Part shown: positions 2,930 through 41,875 of the stretch, piece after piece | How positions within the stretch are numbered: position 1 is the stretch's first letter | Layout: every line of letters begins with the position of its first letter | NCBI GenBank assembly: GCA_003222305.1 | Contig: QHVQ01000009.1 | Span: forward strand, 1-45,524 | From: Acidobacteriota bacterium | GTDB lineage: Bacteria > Acidobacteriota > Polarisedimenticolia > Gp22-AA2 > AA152 | DNA length: 45,524 nucleotides | Direction: 5' to 3' | Translations under genes and position numbers: made by a program | Notes under the pieces: model-generated | What the model was told of the DNA's origin: nothing | What the model saw: only the letters and a program-made list of their open reading frames with translations | Databases searched by the model: none

Positions 2930-3826
2930 TCAATGTCCCAATACAGTCCAGAAATCACCCTTGAGGTTGAAGTAGAGATAAGCAAGGGGGTGTGAGAAAT
3001 CCAGGGCCTGGAGGGTCGAGAGGATTCGCCCGTCGTAGGTGAGCTGGTCCACCACGAACGGAGCGGCCGCCAGAAGGTCGGCCACGGCATGGCTGCGCGG
3101 ACATGGCTCCACGCGATTCTCCAAGGCCTTGAAAATTCGGTAAATGCCGGCGATAGGAAAGCTCCCCCGAACGGGCCCGCCTCCCTGGAAGGTCCCCCGA
3201 AACGGAGTGCCTACGACCCGAAAGGCCCCTCCCAGCCTCCGCACCAGACTCAAGTCGTCGCTGAGTACCTCCCCCTTGCTGGATGTCGCGGCCAGTGTGG
3301 ATTTTCCACTGCCCGACGCTCCCACGAAGAGATATCCCCGACCTTCCACCGCGAGACTCGCCGCGTGGAGAAGCGCCCCCCCCTCGGCCACAGCCAGCCA
3401 TGCGGTACAGACTCGTAGGTAGTTCTCCACGCACCAGGGTGCTTTCTCGAATTCCGCGCGCGCCAGTGCCATCTCGCCGCGCCGCTGCTCAATGGAGATC
3501 CAGCCCGCAAAGCCGAAGGACTGCACCAAAAGGATTGGCCCTTCCCATCTTAGGCTCAGTGGATGCGGCGCGCCCGCAGGCACCAGGTCCGGCAAGACGA
3601 AGTGGTTCATCTCCACGCTCAGCAATCGCACTCGAAACGCTTCCTTGGCTCCACTCCCCGAGAACTGGTCATAGCGGTCCGCCAGCAGCTCGCCCAGCAC
3701 CGAATCTGCTCCCACCAAGGAGAATTCCCAGCCCCCGATGTTCACCCCTAGCGGCGGCTCGCTCCCGCGGCTCGAGAGGTTCGCGAAGAAGGATTGCGGG
3801 GGAGGCGGGAAGCGGTTCAGAGTCAA
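2930..3826 (-). CDS. HprK-related P-loop kinase-like protein
   Basis: LLHAASL...LFVGASGSGKSTLA (Walker A) and LSDD signature of the HPr kinase/PEPCK-like fold; SD GAGGTG before TTG. Confidence 0.75.
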   Translation of the reverse strand: MTLNRFPPPPQSFFANLSSRGSEPPLGVNIGGWEFSLVGADSVLGELLADRYDQFSGSGAKEAFRVRLLSVEMNHFVLPDLVPAGAPHPLSLRWEGPILLVQSFGFAGWISIEQRRGEMALARAEFEKAPWCVENYLRVCTAWLAVAEGGALLHAASLAVEGRGYLFVGASGSGKSTLAATSSKGEVLSDDLSLVRRLGGAFRVVGTPFRGTFQGGGPVRGSFPIAGIYRIFKALENRVEPCPRSHAVADLLAAAPFVVDQLTYDGRILSTLQALDFSHPLAYLYFNLKGDFWTVLGH

Positions 3827-3844: not shown

Positions 3845-4399
3845 TCAATGTGGCCCTCTTCCCGACATCGCCACCAGCCTCGCGACTACAACGAAACGGC
3901 GAGGAGCGGGCCCTATGTAGTGGAAAGGATAGCAAGTCACCAGCGTGAGGACAGGCTGGTCACCCGGATCCAAGACCGATGTCTTCGAAGGATCGATTAC
4001 TTGGGCGGATTCCACTTGATAAACGGCGGTTCCATTTGCCCCTTCCAGGTCCACCCTGTCGCCGGGGCGAAGGGAGCCCAGGTGACGAAAGTGGAGGTCC
4101 CGATGGCCCGCGATGATGCAATTCTCGGGCTGCCCCGGAAGCGCCGATCCGACAAGATGCCCCGGCGCTCTTAGCAGATCACGCGGCTCAGTCCCCTCGA
4201 TGACGGTGACACTCAAACCGATTTTTTGAATCCGGAGGCGGGCGAATGGAAAACCGGTAGGGGGTCCCGCACCATGAAGCCGGGTGGCCGCTGGTAGGAC
4301 CTCCTCAGCATGGCTGGCCTGCCAAGCCGGCGAATGAAGATAGCCTGTGAGCGCCACCGCGAGGACGGCGGCGCCCGCCAGGACCAGTACGGCACCCAC
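3845..4399 (-). CDS. Sortase (class D-like)
   Basis: N-terminal hydrophobic anchor; catalytic His (AGHRD), Cys (TLVTCYPF) and Arg (PRRFVV); start uncertain, frame open up to about 4447. Confidence 0.92.
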   Translation of the reverse strand: MGAVLVLAGAAVLAVALTGYLHSPAWQASHAEEVLPAATRLHGAGPPTGFPFARLRIQKIGLSVTVIEGTEPRDLLRAPGHLVGSALPGQPENCIIAGHRDLHFRHLGSLRPGDRVDLEGANGTAVYQVESAQVIDPSKTSVLDPGDQPVLTLVTCYPFHYIGPAPRRFVVVARLVAMSGRGPH

Positions 4400-4430
4400 C
4401 AGGGCGCTAGGGCTTCTCAGGGAAAGCGCT

Positions 4431-5027
4431 CTATGCGGCGTTCTGCCTCAGCAAGAGCACACCTATTCCCGTCAAAACGAGACCCGAAAGAGCCAGCAGC
4501 GGAAGAGAGCTCCCGGTGGCTGGCATGGATCTCGATGGCTTCTCCTCGGAGGGCTCCTGCGCCGCCGGCTCGGGCGTCGCCGACTCTTGCGCCGGGACCT
4601 CCTTCACCTCCGCCGGTGCAGGGGTAGGATTCGGCACGCGAGGGGCCTCGGCCACTTCGGGCTTCGGCGTTGAAGCGGTCTCGACGGTCGAAGGCTCGCT
4701 GAGAGCCTCGCCTTCCCCTCCCCACGGATATTCAAGATGGTGGCTGGTCAGACTCTGGTAGGTCTCATCATCCAGGAGTCCCCGGTCATTCAGTGAATGA
4801 GCCGATTGGTACTGCGAGAGAGCGCGCTGGGTGTGCCCGTCGAGGATCCCAGGGGTGAAAGCTCCCTGAGACAGATACCCTTCCCTCACCAGTACTTCCT
4901 GAGCTTGCAGAGTGTCCGCGCTGTTGTTGAAGACGTGGCTGTCCTCCGCCCAGAGTGGCGCCATACCAAAGACCAGCAGCAACCCGGCGGTCATGGCGAT
5001 CATTCGGATGATTCGTGCTTTTCTCAT
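4431..5027 (-). CDS. Secreted peptidoglycan-binding protein with LPXTG-like sorting signal (sortase substrate)
   Basis: Signal peptide; PG_binding_1-like repeat (GILDGHTQRALSQYQ...GLLDDET); P/E/A-rich linker; MPATG (4512-4526), TM helix and RQ tail. Confidence 0.85.
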   Translation of the reverse strand: MRKARIIRMIAMTAGLLLVFGMAPLWAEDSHVFNNSADTLQAQEVLVREGYLSQGAFTPGILDGHTQRALSQYQSAHSLNDRGLLDDETYQSLTSHHLEYPWGGEGEALSEPSTVETASTPKPEVAEAPRVPNPTPAPAEVKEVPAQESATPEPAAQEPSEEKPSRSMPATGSSLPLLALSGLVLTGIGVLLLRQNAA

Positions 5028-5363
5028 CTTTCCTCCTTCCCGGCGAAGTTACGCTCACGCCTCGGCCCGGTTTTCCGCACTGCGTGGGTGATCCTTTGTC
5101 CCTAGTTCGGCTTAATGTATCATGCGCCGAATCATCGCTTCAAGATCATTTCCCCTCAAGACGCGCTGAGGGATGCGCCGGGTATGCTATGATGCGCCGC
5201 GTTTGGCAGGCAATCATGGAGGCTTGTGTCATCCTTGGCACGTTCGCCCCCGATGCTGATGCGGCCATCGAATCTGTCCGGATGCGCTTGATAACCCGAT
5301 CGTTCCCATCCTCCTACGGGTCTCCCTGACCCGATGATCGGGCGATTTTCTTAGGCCCCGCTG

Positions 5364-14215: not shown

Positions 14216-17083
14216 TTGGCGGCTTCTGGTAGCATCGGCCCGGGCAAATTCTCGAAGGGCCGCGCGCCCGAGGTCCCGGGAGCCAGCGCGTTGATCGTCT
14301 TCCTACTCTCCCACCGTACCGCCGCGATCTCGTGTCTCCTGCTCATCACCCTGCTCTCGTGCGGGTTCGTCGGATTGCTTCATGTCGATCCGGGGGTCGA
14401 GTCGCTGCTTCCAGCGGAAGGAAAGAACTTGCGTGTCCTTCGCGAATTCAACGCCACTTTCGCTTCCGACGAAATCATCGTGTTGGCGCTGCATTCCCCG
14501 CGGCTCTTCTCGACGGAGGGACTGAAGCGGCTGGACGGTCTGACCCGCGAAGCCGAGAGACTTCCCAACGTGACGAGGGTCCTCTCCCCGACCAACGCGA
14601 AGGATTTGGAGGGAGACGCTCTGGGGCCCTTTCCCCTGGTCCCCTACGAAAGAGTCGCGAAGGGAGAATGGTCTCCCGAGGAGCTGGGCCGACGACTCGC
14701 GGCCCATCCCCTCTTCGGCGGGCTGCTGGTCTCCTCCGACGCCTCGACCGCGGCGATCCTGATCGAGGTGAGGCGCCTGGAAGGGAATCCCAAGTACCGG
14801 GCTCGGCTGGTGGCGCAGATCCGACAGCTGGCTGCCGCCGGCGCCGCGGGAATGGAGGTTCATGTGGCCGGCATTCCTGTGGAAAAAGTGGACGTAGCCG
14901 ATTACGTGAAGCGCGAGCAGCGGATCTTCGCGCCCCTCATCTTCGGTCTGCTGGCCCTGGTCACCCTCCTGCTCTATCGGCATCCTGCAGGAATGTTGGT
15001 CCCCCTGGGTGTCGTGGCCGCCTCGCTGGTCTGGACGCTCGGTCTGTATGCGGCCGCGGGCCGTCCCTTGAACCCGGTCACCTCGCTCATCACGCCGGTG
15101 GTCCTGGTCGTTTCGGTGGCCGGGAGCATCCATTTCCTGAATCATTATCTCGGAGCCCGCGCCGAGGGACTCTGGCGAGAACCGGCCCTCGAACGGGCGT
15201 TCCGCGTAACCAGGGTTCCCTGCTTCAACGCCGCCTTCACGACCGCCATCGGTTTCGGCTCGCTGCTGGTGCTCCCCATCCCGGCCATTCGGGACTTCGG
15301 GATGTTCACCGCCGCGGGGGTGATGATTTCCTATTTGCTGACCATGGCCCTTACTCCTCTCCTGATTTCCTTGCTCCCGGATTTCCCTCCCCGAGTCACC
15401 CGCAAATTCAAGAGCGGGCCCATCGAGCGGGCCCTGCGTGCAACCATCCGAATCACCTGCCGGCATCCCCTCCTCGCCACCGCGGCCGCCGTGGCCGTGC
15501 TGACCGTCTCCGCGCTGGGCCTGTCCCGGATTCACACGGAAACGGATCTCATCCGGTCCCTCCGGCGCGACAGCCCACTCGCCCGGGCCACCCGGTTCAT
15601 CGACAGTCACCTGACCGGGGTGAATTCCCTAGAGATTCTCGTCCGCGGCGTTCCCCTCGACGATCCGGCGGCCCTGGCGAGGGTGGCCAGCTTCGAGGAG
15701 AAGGTCCGGAGCATGCCCGGCGTCCGCAAGGTCACCGGTCTGCCCGATCTGGTGTCACGGGTCAATCGGGCGCTCCACGAGGGTAACGACGACTTTGCAA
15801 AGTTGCCCGAGGGGCCTGAGGCCCGCGAGGATCTGGCGGACATCGGTCGCCTCTTGAAAGAGCAGGCCCCCGCCGAGCTGGCCCGCTTCGTGGCGCCGGG
15901 CCACGGGACGCTCCGGCTTGCGGCCAGGGTAACGGCCCTCGGTTCGGCGGCCTCCCAACAGCTCTTTGCGCGCATCCGGCGCGCCTCGACCCTCGCCGGG
16001 CTGCCCGGGATCGCTCTCACAGGAAACTTCGTCGTGCTTTCCGACATGTCCACCTCCCTGGTGTCCAATCAGATGCGCGGCCTCGCGCCGGCGCTGCTCC
16101 TGATCCTCGCCGCCATGGCCGTACAGTTGCGCTCCCTCCGACTGGGGCTCCTCAGCGCCATTCCCACGGGCGCGCCCGTGCTCATGACCTACGGGCTGAT
16201 GGGTTGGCTCGGCATCCCCCTTTCGGTTTCCACCGCCATGATCGCCAGCATCACCCTCGGGATGACCGATGACAACACGATCCACCTGCTGGCTCGCTTT
16301 CGGGAGGAGTTCGCACGGGATGGCGATTATGAGATCGCCCTGGCCGCGATGATGGACACGTCAGGGCGCGCCGTGCTCTTCTCGACCCTCACGGTGGCGG
16401 CGGGTTTCTGGGTCGGTGCTTTCAGCTCCTTCCTCCCCTCGGTGCATTTCGCGGTCCTTACCGGCCTCACCCTGCTCCTCGGGCTCCTCTGCGAAGCGGT
16501 GCTCCTCCCCTTGACGCTGATTCTCTTCAGGCCGCTCGGGAAGCCCGCCCTCCCAGGCGAGGCCCCAGGAAGCCGCGCCGCTCTTGCGATCCTCGCGTGG
16601 CTGCCGATGCTTTCCTTCGCCGGAACGGCAGCCTCCGCACCCCGGGCCGAGGTGCTTCTCAGGGACCAATACGGCAGGGCCGATGGGCCTGCGCGTCACG
16701 CGGGGATTCCTCTGCTCCTGCTCTATGGACAACCTCCGGATCTCCGGGGCATGAGGTCATGGGAGGTGAGGATCCTGGAGAAAGCGGGAAGCGGCTTCCA
16801 GGTCATGCGGGCTGTGGACGCCCGAGGCGTGAAGGGGAAAAGGACCGAGGCCGAGGTGAACCATCGCCTGCAGAGAAATGTCCCGCAAGAGATTGCCGTG
16901 TTGGTGGACTGGGACGGGGAGCTGGCGAGGGCCTACGCCCTTCCTGACCGGGGGCTCACCGTGACCGTTCTGGATTCCAAGGGTAAGGCCTGCGCGACCG
17001 TTTCAGGGCCCGTGCGGGACATGACGCTCACAAGGCTGCTGGACGCGCTCGCCCAGGTGCGGGCCAAAGGGGCGTGCCCATGA
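14216..17083 (+). CDS. MMPL/RND-family transporter with an extra C-terminal thioredoxin-like domain
   Basis: Two TM-loop-5TM halves, TTAIGFGSL, GMTDDNTIH; extra C-terminal domain (LRDQYG...VLVDWDG...VLDSKG); start uncertain (14216 or 14291). Confidence 0.85.
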   Translation: MAASGSIGPGKFSKGRAPEVPGASALIVFLLSHRTAAISCLLLITLLSCGFVGLLHVDPGVESLLPAEGKNLRVLREFNATFASDEIIVLALHSPRLFSTEGLKRLDGLTREAERLPNVTRVLSPTNAKDLEGDALGPFPLVPYERVAKGEWSPEELGRRLAAHPLFGGLLVSSDASTAAILIEVRRLEGNPKYRARLVAQIRQLAAAGAAGMEVHVAGIPVEKVDVADYVKREQRIFAPLIFGLLALVTLLLYRHPAGMLVPLGVVAASLVWTLGLYAAAGRPLNPVTSLITPVVLVVSVAGSIHFLNHYLGARAEGLWREPALERAFRVTRVPCFNAAFTTAIGFGSLLVLPIPAIRDFGMFTAAGVMISYLLTMALTPLLISLLPDFPPRVTRKFKSGPIERALRATIRITCRHPLLATAAAVAVLTVSALGLSRIHTETDLIRSLRRDSPLARATRFIDSHLTGVNSLEILVRGVPLDDPAALARVASFEEKVRSMPGVRKVTGLPDLVSRVNRALHEGNDDFAKLPEGPEAREDLADIGRLLKEQAPAELARFVAPGHGTLRLAARVTALGSAASQQLFARIRRASTLAGLPGIALTGNFVVLSDMSTSLVSNQMRGLAPALLLILAAMAVQLRSLRLGLLSAIPTGAPVLMTYGLMGWLGIPLSVSTAMIASITLGMTDDNTIHLLARFREEFARDGDYEIALAAMMDTSGRAVLFSTLTVAAGFWVGAFSSFLPSVHFAVLTGLTLLLGLLCEAVLLPLTLILFRPLGKPALPGEAPGSRAALAILAWLPMLSFAGTAASAPRAEVLLRDQYGRADGPARHAGIPLLLLYGQPPDLRGMRSWEVRILEKAGSGFQVMRAVDARGVKGKRTEAEVNHRLQRNVPQEIAVLVDWDGELARAYALPDRGLTVTVLDSKGKACATVSGPVRDMTLTRLLDALAQVRAKGACP

Positions 17084-18615
17084 AGATCCTGCTCGTCGCC
17101 ATGCCCGACTCCGCCTCCTGCTTCGACCACATCATGGAGCTCCCGAACCTGGCCCTGTGCTGCCTCGCCGGAAACCTGGAGGGCCTCCATGAAGTGCGGA
17201 TTCTGGATCTCGTGAAGCACCGCCGGGTGGCCGCCCAGGCGCTCGAGCGCCAGATGCGTGAGTTCTCCCCGGATCTCGTGGGCATCTCCGCCATGTCCTT
17301 TCAGATCGGCTCAGCGCGCAAGACGGCGGCGGTCTGCAAGGCCATCAAGCCCGACGTCCTCACCGTTCTGGGGGGCTACCACGCCACCATCATGTGGAAG
17401 GAGATCGGGGAAGGCTATGATCGGAATCTCTTCGATTATGTAGTTCGTGGCGAGGGAGAGACGATTTTCAACTCCCTGGTGAAGACGGTCCACTCGCACG
17501 GAGACCTTGATCGAATCTCCGGCCTTTCGTACCGCAGGGGCGGCGAGTACCGACATAATCCGCCGGCTCCCCTGCTGAATCTGGAGGGGGTGCGGCCGCC
17601 GCAGCGAAGCGGTCGAGTCTCGGGCAACTTTCTTTGGATGGGTCGCCCGTTCGACGTCTCCGAGACCAGCCGCGGATGTACCATGCCCTGTGGCTTCTGC
17701 AGCATCCGGCGGATGTACGGGAAGACCTTCCGACTCTATCCCGACGAACAGGTCGTGGCCGACCTTCGAGATGTCAAGGCCCGCGGCGGCAAGGGGGTGC
17801 TCTTCGTGGATGACAATATTACGCTGGACGGACCACGCCTCAAGAAGCTCTGCCAGCGATTCGAGCAGGAGAAGGTCAATGACCTATTCATCGTGATGCA
17901 GGCCAGTGTCTTCCCCATCGCCGCGGACCTGGAAATTGCGGAGGCCATGGCGCGGGGCGGTGTGAAGATGGTCTTCCTGGGAATCGAGAGCGGCGACGAG
18001 CGGAACCTAAGAGTTCTGGGAAAGACGAAACAGGCTCCGAAAACCCGCGCAGTGGTCCGGGCGCTCCGGGACGCGGGGATCATCGTCATCGGAGGCTTCA
18101 TCGTAGGAAACCCCGAGGATCGGGAAGAGGATGTCCGCGCCACTTACCGCTATGTGAAGAAGATTGGCGTCGATCACGGCATCGTCCAGTGCCTGACCCC
18201 TTACCCCAAGACGGAACTGAGGCGCCAGCTGCTGGAGCAAGGACTCGTGACCAACCCGGACGATTTGGATCGCTACAACGGCTTCATTCCAAACGTGCGG
18301 ACGAAGTATCTTTCGGAGAGAGACCTTGCCCGGATTATGACCGGCGCCGGCATCCGCCTCTACTGGGACCCCCAATACGTCCTGCAGAACGGCATCTGGA
18401 AGGCCTGCCCCGCTCAGGCTTTCTGGATGCTCTGGAACAACCTCAAGTACATCTTCACAGGCTACGCCGGCCGAATGTTTCTCTCCCGCCACCGCTTCGA
18501 GCCCAGCCTATCCCTCGACCTCCCGGACGACTTGCGCTCCCCTTCCTATTCCGAGATTCTCACCCCGGGCAAGGATCCTGTCTATGGTAGGGCGGCCGGG
18601 CCTCACCCCTTGTAG
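17080..18615 (+). CDS. Cobalamin-binding radical SAM protein
   Basis: N-terminal B12-binding domain (DLVGIS, LGGYHAT, VVRGEGE); ETSRGCTMPCGFC; FVDDN; GIESG; ATGA overlap with the MMPL gene. Confidence 0.92.
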   Translation: MKILLVAMPDSASCFDHIMELPNLALCCLAGNLEGLHEVRILDLVKHRRVAAQALERQMREFSPDLVGISAMSFQIGSARKTAAVCKAIKPDVLTVLGGYHATIMWKEIGEGYDRNLFDYVVRGEGETIFNSLVKTVHSHGDLDRISGLSYRRGGEYRHNPPAPLLNLEGVRPPQRSGRVSGNFLWMGRPFDVSETSRGCTMPCGFCSIRRMYGKTFRLYPDEQVVADLRDVKARGGKGVLFVDDNITLDGPRLKKLCQRFEQEKVNDLFIVMQASVFPIAADLEIAEAMARGGVKMVFLGIESGDERNLRVLGKTKQAPKTRAVVRALRDAGIIVIGGFIVGNPEDREEDVRATYRYVKKIGVDHGIVQCLTPYPKTELRRQLLEQGLVTNPDDLDRYNGFIPNVRTKYLSERDLARIMTGAGIRLYWDPQYVLQNGIWKACPAQAFWMLWNNLKYIFTGYAGRMFLSRHRFEPSLSLDLPDDLRSPSYSEILTPGKDPVYGRAAGPHPL

Positions 18616-21924: not shown

Positions 21925-23172
21925 TTACTGGTTCTCATCCACCTGCCTGGGCTTGGTCGGATCCTCAAGCGCAACCTCGACTCCGTCGGTGAGTCCCTCC
22001 ATAATCTGCGCCTTCTCCAGGCTCACCAGTCCAACCTTCACGTCCTTCTCCTCGAAGAAGCGCTGCCAGACGTCGGACACATCCAGCTTTCCCGAACGGG
22101 TATTCCGAGGCTCCTTCTCTCCCGCCTTGGGGGCGTCGAAGGCCTTCTTCAGAATGTAGGCCACCTCTCGGTCCTTTTTCTTGAAGATGGCTTCCACGGG
22201 AATGCCAAGCGCTGCGGTTACTTTGTCCCCTCTCACCTCGATGTTGGCCGTCATGCCAGCGCGAAAGTCCTTGATCTGCTCTTTCAGGGTGACTTCGACG
22301 TCGAAGACCTTGACCTTCTCCTTCAGCCGAGCGGCGGGGGAAATGTGAGTGACCGTTCCATCGAAGCGACGGTAGGGAAACGCGTCCACGGTGATCACTA
22401 CCGGCATCCCCAGACGGACACGCCCGATATCCACCTCGTTGATGGAGGCCTTGATGAGCATGGAGCCCACGTCGGCTACGGTGTAAAGCGGCGTCCCTTC
22501 GTTGAACGAGGAGACACCGGAGGTTACCGTCTGTCCTACCTCCACGTTCCTCTTTACCACGGTGCCGTCCATGGGGGAGACGATATTCACGCGTTGGGAC
22601 GTGGAGATCTGCCCCTCCAACGGGATTCCGCTCTCCACGACGATGCGGCTCTTGGTCTTGGCGGCTTCGAGATTCTCCTTGGCCGTATCGAACTTCACCC
22701 GATAGTCCTTCAGCTGCTGAACCGCCAGCAGACCTTCCTCGTACAGCCGCTGATTGGTCTCCAGATCTTTCTGGGCGTCCTGGGCACGGATTTCCGCCAG
22801 GGTCAACTCCGATCGGACCGCCGAAAGAGTTTGGGCCTGGTTCACGTCCGGCTCGACACGGGCGAGGACCTGGCCGCGCTTCACGCGATCGCCTTCCTTC
22901 ACCAGAAGCTCCGTGACCTCGCCGGATAACGGGGACTTGACGTCTACCTTCACGACCGGCTCGATGGTGCCCATCTCGTTCACGGTCACCTGAATGTCGG
23001 AGACGCCCGACTTCCCGATGCGAAGATCCAGGTCCTCGGCCTTCAATGTCTGCTTGTTATGGGCGAAACCTGACCGGCCGAGAAAGGCGGCTCCGCTCCC
23101 TAAAACAAGAACCCCGAGGATCAGGGCGATCCAGATCCAGCGGCGGGGCCCCCGCCTCAGACCTGCGGCCAT
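21925..23172 (-). CDS. Efflux periplasmic adaptor subunit (MacA/HlyD type)
   Basis: N-terminal TM; lipoyl-like halves (VKEGDRVKRGQVLA; SPMDGTV...VEVGQTV); FRAGMTA; SD GGAGGGAG before ATG 23172. Confidence 0.9.
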   Translation of the reverse strand: MAAGLRRGPRRWIWIALILGVLVLGSGAAFLGRSGFAHNKQTLKAEDLDLRIGKSGVSDIQVTVNEMGTIEPVVKVDVKSPLSGEVTELLVKEGDRVKRGQVLARVEPDVNQAQTLSAVRSELTLAEIRAQDAQKDLETNQRLYEEGLLAVQQLKDYRVKFDTAKENLEAAKTKSRIVVESGIPLEGQISTSQRVNIVSPMDGTVVKRNVEVGQTVTSGVSSFNEGTPLYTVADVGSMLIKASINEVDIGRVRLGMPVVITVDAFPYRRFDGTVTHISPAARLKEKVKVFDVEVTLKEQIKDFRAGMTANIEVRGDKVTAALGIPVEAIFKKKDREVAYILKKAFDAPKAGEKEPRNTRSGKLDVSDVWQRFFEEKDVKVGLVSLEKAQIMEGLTDGVEVALEDPTKPRQVDENQ

Positions 23173-23409
23173 GTGACTCCCTCCCTGTTCATAGGCTTCT
23201 GCGAAATTGGGTTCCTGTTTGGACCTGGCTGGCTTTCCGCCCATCCTCTCCTACGGAAAACTGGGGAAAAAGTTCACCTGGGTTGGAGTTTGGATAAGTT
23301 TGGCACGGCTTCCCGCCACCCTAGGCGGTCGAGCCCTCCCCCTCGGGTTTGACTGCGCCTGTGGCATCTGCTATCAGGGCCTCCTTCGCCCTTCGGGAGT
23401 TGCCGGCCC

Positions 23410-29685: not shown

Positions 29686-29973
29686 ATGGAAGATTCGACG
29701 AGCGACCCCAAGAGCAAGATTCAGGAGCTGATCGATTATCAGATCAATCCGGCCGTGGCGGGACACGGGGGGGTCATCGAGCTCCTGGACTACAAGGATG
29801 GCGTGGTCTACCTGCGCATGGGGGGAGGCTGCCAGGGATGCGGCATGGCCAATGTCACCCTGAAGCAGGGGATCGAGCGGATGCTCCGCGAAGAGATCCC
29901 GGAAATCCTGCAGGTGGTGGACACCACCGATCATGCCGGCGGGACCAATCCCTATTATCAGCCCTCCAAGTAA
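29686..29973 (+). CDS. NifU-C/NfuA-type Fe-S cluster carrier
   Basis: INPAVAGHGG, GGGCQGC, TLKQGIE, DTTDH...NPYY. Confidence 0.92.
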   Translation: MEDSTSDPKSKIQELIDYQINPAVAGHGGVIELLDYKDGVVYLRMGGGCQGCGMANVTLKQGIERMLREEIPEILQVVDTTDHAGGTNPYYQPSK

Positions 29974-30025
29974 AGCGGACTCCGGATACCCAACCTCCGA
30001 CTCCCCGGCATCCACGGATACTTCC

Positions 30026-31477
30026 ATGCGTCAGCCAGGCGGAATTCTCCTCGTCTCCTGCTATGAGCTGGGCCACCAGCCCCTCGGGCTTGCCCTTCCC
30101 CTGGGCTTTCTGGAAGCCGCAGGATTCCGCCCGGAGGCAGTCGATGTCTCGCGCGAGCCGCTAAATCGTGCGCGGATTGCGAGCGCCCGGCTGGCCGCCC
30201 TCTCCGTGCCGATGCATACCGCCTTGCGACTCGGTGTCCGGGTCGCCGGCCTCATCCGACAAGAAAACCCTTCCTGCCACATCTGCCTCCATGGCCATTA
30301 CGCTGCTCTTAATGCCGACTATCTCCTCAGCGGCCCGGCCGATTCCATCCTCGCGGGCGAATGCGAGGCGAGCCTGGTGGACCTTGCCTGCTCGCTGGAG
30401 GCGGGACGGGATCTCTCGGAGGTCTCGGGACTGTCCTTGCCACACCGGAGAGCCGCCCCGATCCGGCGCCGCCTGCGGTTCGTTGTGCCGAGTCGAGAGC
30501 GCCTCCGGCCGCTCGCCAATTACGCTTCGCTGGAAGAGGAGAGCGGGATTCGGATTGCCGGATGCGTGCAGGCCAGCCGCGGATGTCTGCACCTCTGCCG
30601 TCACTGTCCCATCCCCCCCGTCTACCAGGGTCGATTCTTCGTGATTCCTCGCGAGGTGGTGCTCGCGGACATCCGCAGGCAGGTGGAGCTGGGTGCGACT
30701 CATATCACTTTTGGAGATCCCGATTTCCTGAACGGTCCCGGACACTCCTTGGCGCTGGTGGCGGAGATGCACCGGCTCTTTCCCTTCCTCACTTTCGATT
30801 TCACTGCCAAGATCGAGCACCTCCTCAAGCACGCCTCCCTTCTCCCGAAGCTGAAGGACGCGGGGTGTCTTTTCGTGGTGTCGGCTGTGGAATCGCTCAG
30901 CGACCGGGTGCTGAACATTCTGGACAAGGGGCACACCCGTCGAGACGTGGAAACGGTGCTCGATCTGTTTCAGAGTGCACGCCTGACCCTGCGTCCGTCC
31001 CTGGTGCCTTTCACACCCTGGTCAACACCTTCCGACTACTCCGAGCTGCTGGATTTCGTGCAGGAGCGGGACCTCGTGGATGCGGTGGAGCCGGTGCAAT
31101 TCTCGGTCCGGCGGTTGATCCCTCCAGGCTCCGGTCTGCTGGACCAGCCCGCGATGTCCCCCCACCTGGGGGCGCTGGTCCCGGAATCGTTCAGCTACAC
31201 CTGGAAGCATCCGGATGAGCGGATGGATCGACTTCATCGCCGGGTGTCATCCGAGGTCGAGCAGGCGGCCCACCGACGCGAAGCGTCGGAAGAGACCTTT
31301 CTTCGGATTCGCAGAATCTGCTCGGAGATTATCGGAAGGACCGCTCCGGCAGCTCGGAGCATGACGGAGACTGTCCTGAGGCGCCACGTGCCCCGACTGA
31401 CCGAAAGCTGGTTTTGCTGAGCGGAGCCCACCGAGGGTCAGTTGGACCCTCTTCGGCGGGTAGACCGAGTGGTCTGA
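30026..31477 (+). CDS. CUAEP-tail radical SAM selenoprotein (B12-binding-like N-terminus); UGA 31418-31420 read as Sec
   Basis: SCYELGHQP N-terminus; SRGCLHLCRHC; HITFGDPDFLN; tail RLTESWFC-TGA-AEPTEGQLDPLRRVDRVV then stop at 31475-31477. Confidence 0.88.
31426..31460 (+). promoter_or_regulatory. Candidate bacterial SECIS hairpin
   Basis: GAGGGTC-AGTTG-GACCCTC stem-loop (31433-31451) starting 12 nt after the TGA, extendable with flanking CCC/CC...GG/GGG pairs. Confidence 0.65.
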
Positions 31478-38819: not shown

Positions 38820-38929
38820 CAAACTGGGATCGACGGCGATGGGCTAGGGGATTCATCTCGGCGGGATCAGGACTTCACCTGCTGGCTGCACCGTCGCCGA
38901 AACCGTAACTTGCCTTGAGGATTATGACG

Positions 38930-39532
38930 ATGCTCCCTCCCCATGGTACCGAGGTTCGACCCGGGCTGATCCTGCTCGTCCTGCTGCCGCTTCTCTTCGG
39001 CGCCGCAGCGCCCAAGGGGGCGAAAGGAACCCCGCAATCGGACGCGGGGGTCGATTACCGGATCGGGGTCGGGGACGTCTTGGAGATTCAGGTATGGAAG
39101 GACACGACGCTGAGCCACAGCGTTCCGGTGCGCCCGGATGGAAAGATCTCCTTCCCTCTCCTGGATGACATCCAGGCCGCCGGCATCACCTGCCTGGAGC
39201 TCAAGGCGATCCTGACGCAAAAGCTCAACCATTTCTTGACCGATCCCCAGGTCACCGTCATGGTCAAAGAAGTGAACAGCCGCAAGGTCTATGTGATGGG
39301 GGAAGTGACGAAACCCGGGGAGCTCCCGCTGAGAAGCGAGACGACCCTCCTGCAGGCCATCGCCCTCGCCGGTGGATTCACGCCCTACGCGAACCGCGAC
39401 AAGATCGTCGTCATCCGCAAGAGTCCGGAGGGGGATCGCCGCCTGCGCATCGATTACAAGAAGATCATCGCGGGAAAGGGCCCGTCGGAAAACTTGCTCC
39501 TGGAAGCCGGCGACACGATCGTGGTTCCCTGA
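38930..39532 (+). CDS. Short polysaccharide export protein (OPX/Wza family, Poly_export plus SLBB)
   Basis: YRIGVGDVLEIQVW, VRPDGKISFPL, TLLQAIALAGG, ends LEAGDTIVVP; start 38915-38930 uncertain. Confidence 0.9.
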   Translation: MLPPHGTEVRPGLILLVLLPLLFGAAAPKGAKGTPQSDAGVDYRIGVGDVLEIQVWKDTTLSHSVPVRPDGKISFPLLDDIQAAGITCLELKAILTQKLNHFLTDPQVTVMVKEVNSRKVYVMGEVTKPGELPLRSETTLLQAIALAGGFTPYANRDKIVVIRKSPEGDRRLRIDYKKIIAGKGPSENLLLEAGDTIVVP

Positions 39533-41299: not shown

Positions 41300-41875
41300 A
41301 TGAAGATCAAGGCCCTGCTTCTCCTGTCTCTGCTGCCCTTGCTCCTGTCGGCAACTTCCATGGCGCGCGCCCAGAACCGGGCCGAGTCATGGGAGCTCGG
41401 TCCTTATGTGGTCGGCACCGACTTCGACTCCCAAGCTGAGATCGAGGACGCTGCTGGGATCGGCTTCCGGTTCGGATACAACTTCACCCGCCTGCACGAG
41501 GTCGAAATCCTCTTCGATGCCGTGCACACCCAAGATTCGGTCATCAACCAAATCGACATCGACGAAGGCAAATTCGAAGCGAATTACGTCTTCAACTTCA
41601 ACGTCCAGCGGCATCAGCCGGTGGTCCCCTACCTGACCGCGGGGTTGGGGTTCGTCCACTTCAAGGTGGATGATCCGATCTTCGGGACCGACGACGAAAC
41701 AGATTCCCTCTTCAACTTCGGGGGTGGCGTGCGCTTCTTCTTCACGAAGACCTTCAACCTGCGCCTCGACTTCCGCTCGGTCTTCTTCCAGGGGGACAAC
41801 GTCGTCCTACGAGACCTGGACTACCAGGACAACGAGTTTTCCGCTGGAGTCGGTTGGATTCTGGGGAGCCGCTAG
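41300..41875 (+). CDS. Outer-membrane beta-barrel protein (OmpA-like transmembrane, probably 8-stranded)
   Basis: Signal peptide; amphipathic strands GFRFGYNF, VPYLTAGLG, NFGGGVRFF, FSAGVGW; SD AGGAGAGG. Confidence 0.85.
   Translation: MKIKALLLLSLLPLLLSATSMARAQNRAESWELGPYVVGTDFDSQAEIEDAAGIGFRFGYNFTRLHEVEILFDAVHTQDSVINQIDIDEGKFEANYVFNFNVQRHQPVVPYLTAGLGFVHFKVDDPIFGTDDETDSLFNFGGGVRFFFTKTFNLRLDFRSVFFQGDNVVLRDLDYQDNEFSAGVGWILGSR

Follow-up and report, generated by a model that had tools for sequence, protein, structure and literature searches.

The window analysed here, 45,524 nucleotides in length, is contig QHVQ01000009.1 (positions 1-45,524) of assembly GCA_003222305.1, from an Acidobacteriota bacterium of the Polarisedimenticolia. 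On its reverse strand, the gene for a putative sortase substrate (4431-5027) is followed directly by a sortase gene (3845-4399), and the substrate has the layout that a preliminary description of this DNA had proposed. Preceded on the same strand by a Shine-Dalgarno-like AGGAGG (5032-5037), it encodes 198 amino acids: a Sec signal peptide predicted from hydropathy at about residues 1-27 (4947-5027), its cleavage site inferred; a three-helix PG_binding_1 domain at residues 37-93 (4749-4919); a predicted disordered linker at residues 97-167 (4527-4739); the sorting motif MPATG at residues 168-172 (4512-4526), placed by alignment; and a C-terminal transmembrane helix at about residues 175-193 with the short tail RQNAA (4434-4505), placed by hydropathy and the structure model. 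Ala27 is nearly invariant among aligned homologues, and the protein contains no cysteine and hence no lipobox.

The only domain match in the substrate is PF01471, at 28.3 bits against a cut-off of 23 (28.6-43.7 in relatives), and the model shows the corresponding helices; there are no VIT or vWA domains. Domain search and structure model both bear out the earlier statement that the substrate has no catalytic domain. In a fold search, SleB and CtpB domains headed the list, none at E<=0.001, the best being the SleB N-terminal domain (6TCI, probability 1.00, E 0.11).

The linker comprises 71 residues, 54% of them proline, glutamate or alanine, with a net charge of -9 and pLDDT <50 in the structure model. 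The long P/E/A-rich linker of the preliminary description is therefore real in this protein, although such richness is largely peculiar to this family. Across 17 aligned members the linker spans 33-71 residues with a net charge of -22 to +7, and among cluster representatives 23-173 residues, so a spacer of defined length or chemistry is unsupported and a fixed-length ruler was rejected; judged from these alignments, the linker is a leash. The M, P and T of the motif, in contrast to these diverging linkers, are invariant in 17/17 aligned substrates, and an arginine stands two residues upstream in 16/17 (Arg166 here). A basic tail had also been described: the transmembrane segment is there, but RQNAA holds a single arginine, though 16 aligned relatives hold 2-4 K/R. 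The LPXTG anchor model TIGR01167 scores 15.1 bits, below its 15.9 cut-off, and one orthologue passes at 19.1.

The sortase has 184 amino acids if translated from a GTG at 4399 and 191 if from a near-cognate CTG at 4420; its reading frame lacks an ATG, and these starts are inferred from four same-family junctions. In same-family genomes the sortase begins with GTG or TTG a few bases past the substrate stop, which, together with the CTG at 4420, makes translational coupling of the two genes likely. Hydropathy and a model helix predict an N-terminal membrane anchor (4334-4399). The enzyme is intact, as had been claimed: aligned to 2LN7, catalytic His99 (4103-4105), Cys156 within TLVTC (3932-3934) and Arg168 (3896-3898), all on the reverse strand, are invariant in 27/27 aligned sortases.

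Searches on the correct strand for a sigma-70 site or a terminator of the pair gave nothing above shuffles, and one 185-base contig from an RNA run covers 4390-4574, which is insufficient to show transcription. Nineteen bases past the sortase lies an HprK-related P-loop kinase-like gene (2930-3826, reverse strand; weak family scores), followed by fdhD. These two genes lie downstream of the pair in 4/4 same-family genomes but match at 0/34 short f2 loci (1.5-3 kb flanks), so only the substrate-sortase pair is constant and a larger operon was rejected.

A host with two membranes

The host is a diderm. Its genome (2.82 Mb, 87% complete) encodes LpxC, a BamA-type Omp85 and three OmpA-domain proteins, which read as Pal and two barrels. 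Its MurE carries the motif DNPR, which we take to be a mark of specificity for diaminopimelate (mDAP); mDAP is thus available as a potential acceptor. Within the window, an OMP barrel (41300-41875) and a MacA-like gene (21925-23244) were recovered by profile search and an OPX gene lies at 38915-39532, matching the three proteins from which two membranes had first been deduced. A monoderm host or a chimeric contig is ruled out by the diderm markers, by the GC content of the locus (0.62 versus 0.63 for the genome), by synteny of the flanking genes in 4/4 same-family genomes (one split over two contigs) and by contigs from three soil DNA runs, belonging to three studies, that span the substrate-sortase junction without an indel.

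Elsewhere in the host genome, two tandem YkuD (L,D-transpeptidase) genes (G000:C95:40959-42901) could provide another, independent way of attaching proteins covalently to the wall. The window also encodes an MMPL-family exporter and, after it, a B12-binding radical SAM protein (14216-18615, forward strand), and a second B12 radical SAM gene (29933-31420) adjoins an ATP-grasp ligase.

One enzyme and one substrate

In this 87% complete genome, which could hide further sortases or substrates, a sortase, a PG_binding_1 gene and a credible sorting tail each occur once, and the genes adjoin, in agreement with the dedicated pair first proposed. A strict tail pattern applied to 25,302 stop-to-stop frames of the genome matched once, in the substrate, and turned up no second credible tail. 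As 20 shuffles gave 0-1 matches each, 5 in total, the tail pattern alone is weak, and the case rests on adjacency to the sole sortase and on conservation.

Sortase class

Both general models place the enzyme in the sortase superfamily (PF04203, 105.9 bits against a cut-off of 26.6; TIGR01076, 69.4 against 39.35). Its structure model (pLDDT 88.8) has 4D70 as top fold match (E 3.5e-13), with several class C structures also among the matches, and the closest solved sequence is 2LN7. In the HMM classification that had been suggested as a check, class D models gave the best scores of all classes yet remained under their cut-offs (NF033746, 121.4 against 165; NF058671, 123.8 against 140). The scores for class GN (106.7 against 158.25), class C (64.6 against 160) and class E were well under cut-off, and class GN forms a separate clade (support 100). 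The substrate motif, MPxT[GA] across the family, departs from the LPxTA type of class D. By score, the enzyme appears class-D-like, resembling class D while qualifying for neither class D nor class GN.

Distribution and the methionine motif

A sortase is present in 32/41 related genomes. The tagged substrate occurs in 22/34 genomes of the order, as a single copy in each, with no match in the other 12/34. Strong full-length matches were confined to this order in a 301-genome sample of the phylum, and one probable tagged copy lies on a 1.75-kb contig from another order of the class. Most of the named relatives collected with the sortase as query (80 kept of >596) belong to Acidobacteriota; automatic database names for members include 'LPXTG-motif cell wall-anchored protein' and 'class D sortase'.

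Methionine replaces the leucine of LPXTG, as had been pointed out for this protein, in 21/22 members from the order, 19/19 further homologues and 43/44 tagged cluster representatives, counts that lean upward since the search profile itself favours methionine. By these alignments, methionine at motif position 1 is a family trait. In one orthologue (G006; L133 / L029, G006:C2:42602-43805) the motif has degenerated to RPQSA beside an intact sortase with TCHP, a natural control for motif dependence.

Three types of pair in Acidobacteriota

A scripted assignment of 119 distinct sortase cores by substrate gave 18 of PG-binding type, 13 of VIT/vWA type, 58 with another substrate and 30 with none in the flank. 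The motif begins with methionine in all 18 PG-binding-type substrates. Among the 58 others it begins with leucine in 54, methionine in two and valine in two, and four picks look spurious; with two occurrences here, methionine is not unique to the PG-binding type. These other substrates represent a phylum-wide cassette, in which a small module or a bare linker precedes LP[KA]T[AG]. One-to-one sortase-substrate cassettes are common across Acidobacteriota, contrary to the rarity that the preliminary description implied.

Seven Leu-type substrates of 108-136 residues (L002, L003, L004, L007, L008, L012, L013) have no folded domain, consisting of a signal peptide, a low-complexity linker and LPATA or LPRTG, with a sigma-54-like site upstream. 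Using the sigma-54 consensus, a site above 8/11 was found at 0/17 tagged loci versus 7/7 Leu-type loci (scores of 9-10); upstream of the substrate in the window the best site reached 5/11, equalled by 181/200 shuffles, and no sign of sigma-54 control of the pair was found. The commonest acidobacterial substrate module, WxKxTxVTF...LPAGTYVF (L033, L038, L044, L047, L050 and others), had no Pfam or NCBIfam match beyond the anchor in the two members scanned. The gene order is reversed in L090 and L099, with the sortase ahead of the tagged substrate. True class GN pairs occur separately in the order (171.1 and 574.3 bits; 13 pairs), and L114-L125, L128 and L129 join a class GN sortase to a VIT/vWA substrate with LPQGG, LPQTG or LPRGG in Acidobacteriota. 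Genome G017 carries all three pair types.

Sortases beside a tagged PG-binding substrate have a signature of their own: Cys94 in 18/18, Pro79 in 17/18 and a bulky Ile or Val at position 95. Quick trees of the 119 cores place them in two supported groups that follow host family, apart from the Leu-type and GN sortases, and leave the fork between the two groups open. Eleven genomes hold the PG-binding pair and another sortase, which in three of them belongs to a Leu-type pair; from these sequences it is plausible that methionine versus leucine in the motif may keep the pair apart from Leu-type pairs within one cell.

Apparent exchange of the tag for an OmpA-like domain

The substrate profile gave 54 matches in 30/34 genomes of the order. 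Of these domains, 22 continue into a linker and transmembrane helix (21 with MPxT), 25 end in an OmpA-like domain (confirmed by Pfam as PF00691 on three, by motif on the rest), six stand alone and one is truncated. OmpA fusions occur in 3/22 genomes with the tagged form versus 8/12 without it, or in 3/23 versus 8/11 when one untagged genome with a tagged-type sortase at a contig start is moved across. The complementarity (Fisher p 0.005) is overstated, given that the genomes are related and 63-100% complete. Within genus g3 (10 genomes), seven have the tag and no fusion, two have no tag and four fusions each, and one (75% complete) has neither. Across the order, three genomes hold both forms.

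OmpA-like domains bind the mDAP peptide of the wall non-covalently, and the tag therefore occupies the place of a wall anchor. Of 24 distinct OmpA-fused domains, 22 form a group of their own (support 90, 65 columns), which could mean that they are paralogues serving a different role. The cross-brace proposed in the preliminary description gains indirect support from this exchange (25 fusions) as a two-point wall anchor, though not as a fixed spacer.

The fusions in L183-L188, L195, L200, L204 and L205 consist of PG_binding_1, DxDGDGV-type repeats, presumably thrombospondin type 3-like, and an OmpA-like domain; with up to four per genome, a signal peptide and neither a barrel nor a lipobox seen, they read as soluble double wall binders. 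The six stand-alone copies (L160, L189, L190, L192, L193, L198; genus g3) are secreted PG_binding_1 proteins of ~100 residues that form one supported group, and all sit in genomes that also hold the tagged form.

Sortase-substrate fusions

In a survey of 150 listed cluster representatives, with 85 long multi-repeat proteins set aside, three carried the domain and a sortase in one chain (P0129, P0160 and P0066). P0129 and P0160 have a signal peptide, PG_binding_1, MPxT placed 21 residues ahead of the first sortase strand, His and Cys at the catalytic positions and the Arg further downstream, with TCHP in place of TCYP and no hydrophobic helix after the signal peptide. Their mutual identity is 48-49%, and neither exceeds 60.5% identity with an unfused core; they come from different sources and lie on long branches inside the tagged-type sortase group, their monophyly left open by quick trees. 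Each is a singleton known from protein only, and their divergence fits old fusions better than fresh misassembly. Uniting domain, motif and triad without a helix, they tie the two genes together and suggest that the membrane anchor is dispensable, and they are candidate self-processing sortases. P0066 was rejected as a likely artefact or broken gene, being 89% identical to an unfused sortase and lacking the motif and the first strands. A search for further fusions, covering 81 hits from the best 7,990 candidates as well as 119 genomes of the class, yielded none.

Proposed anchoring to the wall and its alternatives

The reading we favour, with modest confidence, is that the sortase cuts after the threonine of MPATG and joins the protein to peptidoglycan through diaminopimelate. 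The substrate would be exported by Sec and held by its C-terminal helix beside the membrane-anchored sortase; an acyl-enzyme would form at Cys156 with a cut at Thr171-Gly172, and the protein would pass to the free amine of mDAP, either in lipid II or in the finished periplasmic wall. With the N-terminal domain gripping glycan non-covalently, the outcome would be either a clamp that holds the wall at two points or a docking module fixed to the wall, linked to neither membrane. Cleavage would leave the protein without a hold on either membrane, save in the case of a lipid acceptor, so under this reading it would be no equivalent of Lpp or Pal. Several observations speak against wall anchoring: the six stand-alone secreted copies show that the domain can work unanchored, the G006 orthologue with RPQSA retains its sortase, and the host already owns Pal and two OmpA-like barrels. 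A second anchor would also bring a wall-binding domain little obvious gain.

The same stand-alone copies and motif-less orthologue would suit release, in which the sortase is a sheddase that hydrolyses off an inner-membrane-to-wall tether, with the helix in the membrane and the domain on the wall. Hydropathy and the model give the precursor just this topology, and the available text of PMC13712847 raises such a tether for the Shewanella substrate. A linker varying at least twofold in length sits poorly with a tether, however, as do the helix-less fusions, which have no membrane tether to free, and peptide ligases such as sortase are reported to favour aminolysis strongly over hydrolysis (PMC9126251, in the part available). 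We regard release as possible but unlikely.

A lipid acceptor such as phosphatidylethanolamine, which would make a lipid-anchored membrane-to-wall tether, seems improbable. The sortase is predicted to lie on the periplasmic side of the inner membrane, and a lipid at one end with a wall-binding domain at the other would amount to a Pal-like tether; by analogy, rhombosortase and archaeosortase systems transfer proteins to an amine-bearing lipid. The enzyme nevertheless has the canonical sortase fold and its nearest match uses DAP, the tag is replaced in paralogues by a wall-binding domain, not a lipid anchor, and soluble fusions would sit off the membrane.

Transfer to a lysine or N-terminus of another periplasmic protein, or into a pilin-like polymer, is a long shot. 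Several class C structures match the sortase fold, and a wall-binding domain would presumably be most useful on a protein that lacks one. Against this, the class C score is far below cut-off (64.6 versus 160), conservation outside the family does not extend to a third gene, the alignment has no invariant lysine, and 10/17 linkers have no lysine at all (L011, L014, L016, L017, L019, L020, L021, L024, L026, L027). A pilin-like polymer was rejected for want of a conserved lysine. Finally, it is very improbable that the pair is decaying or incidental and serves no function today. One could cite for this the missing ATG, the single basic residue in the tail and the 12/34 genomes without a match, but conservation largely refutes it, as triad and motif stay invariant while linkers diverge and the pair is intact and syntenic in 4/4 same-family genomes.

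A bolder and distinctly tentative proposal is that the pair builds a peptidoglycan staple in diderms, compressed in some lineages into one soluble self-processing protein. The wall-binding domain would guide the tag on its own chain to the completed sacculus for attachment to mDAP by the sortase, and the product would be the covalent equivalent of the double binders with an OmpA domain that it replaces. The compressed form (wall-binding domain, MPxT and sortase) would need neither a membrane anchor nor lipid II.

Comparison with known systems

Genomic work has already revealed dedicated sortase pairs in diderms (PMC3237569, as far as its available text goes). The first phenotype of a diderm system was published in 2026, and in the available part of that report (PMC13712847) the authors call the anchoring site unknown. 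The acceptor of diderm sortases is therefore an open question, for which the pair provides a small test case with one substrate and no catalytic cargo; the OmpA-anchor swap and the helix-less fusions are two comparative clues that point to the wall. If true, bacteria with two membranes would have a second chemical route, in addition to L,D-transpeptidation, by which proteins are joined covalently to the wall. An enzyme with a preference for Met-Pro-x-Thr, or a fusion that ligates itself in nature, could also find use as an orthogonal ligase. The pair is open to testing in E. coli, whose wall also contains mDAP. Open-access literature, searched at listing level, leaves the PG-binding Met-motif variant, the swap and the fusions undescribed; Malik and Kim 2019 and Comfort and Clubb 2004 lie outside that scope and may list acidobacterial sortases.

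The best sequence and fold matches are class D sortases, namely B. anthracis SrtC with BasH/BasI (2LN7) and C. perfringens SrtD (4D70), and the enzyme shares with Bacillota class D the segment TCYPF-x-G-x-AP-x-R and a small number of dedicated substrates. A DAP acceptor is reported for B. anthracis SrtC in the available text of PMC8225981. Unlike Bacillota class D, the enzyme scores below the class cut-offs, belongs to a diderm and is paired with MPxT[GA], not LPxTA, on a substrate that is a lone predicted wall-binding domain. Class GN systems (TIGR03784/TIGR03788), such as Shewanella SO2196/SO2195 and PdsO, likewise have a diderm host and a single substrate encoded directly upstream (available parts of PMC13712847 and PMC3237569), but the pair falls short of the GN score and lacks the VIT/vWA domains. 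The LP[KA]T[AG] cassettes of Acidobacteriota share the two-gene order, a small module with a low-complexity linker and tag, and a class-D-like enzyme; the pair differs from them in its PG_binding_1 domain, its Met motif with Arg two residues before, its own sortase signature and the absence of a sigma-54 site.

Braun's lipoprotein Lpp and Dickeya OutB are joined to mDAP by L,D-transpeptidases (PMC12274547, available text), a covalent protein-wall link in the diderm periplasm like the one predicted here. The predicted chemistry is the opposite, however, with the protein as donor of the acyl group, through Thr, and the amine coming from the wall, and the substrate has neither a lipobox cysteine nor a C-terminal lysine, ending instead in a transmembrane tail. 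The closest relatives of the substrate itself are the PG_binding_1 and OmpA proteins of the same order, which share its domain subfamily (E 1e-18 to 1e-29 to the substrate profile) and a signal peptide; where the tagged substrate ends in MPxT and a helix, these proteins end in PF00691, often after short DxDGDGV-type repeats.
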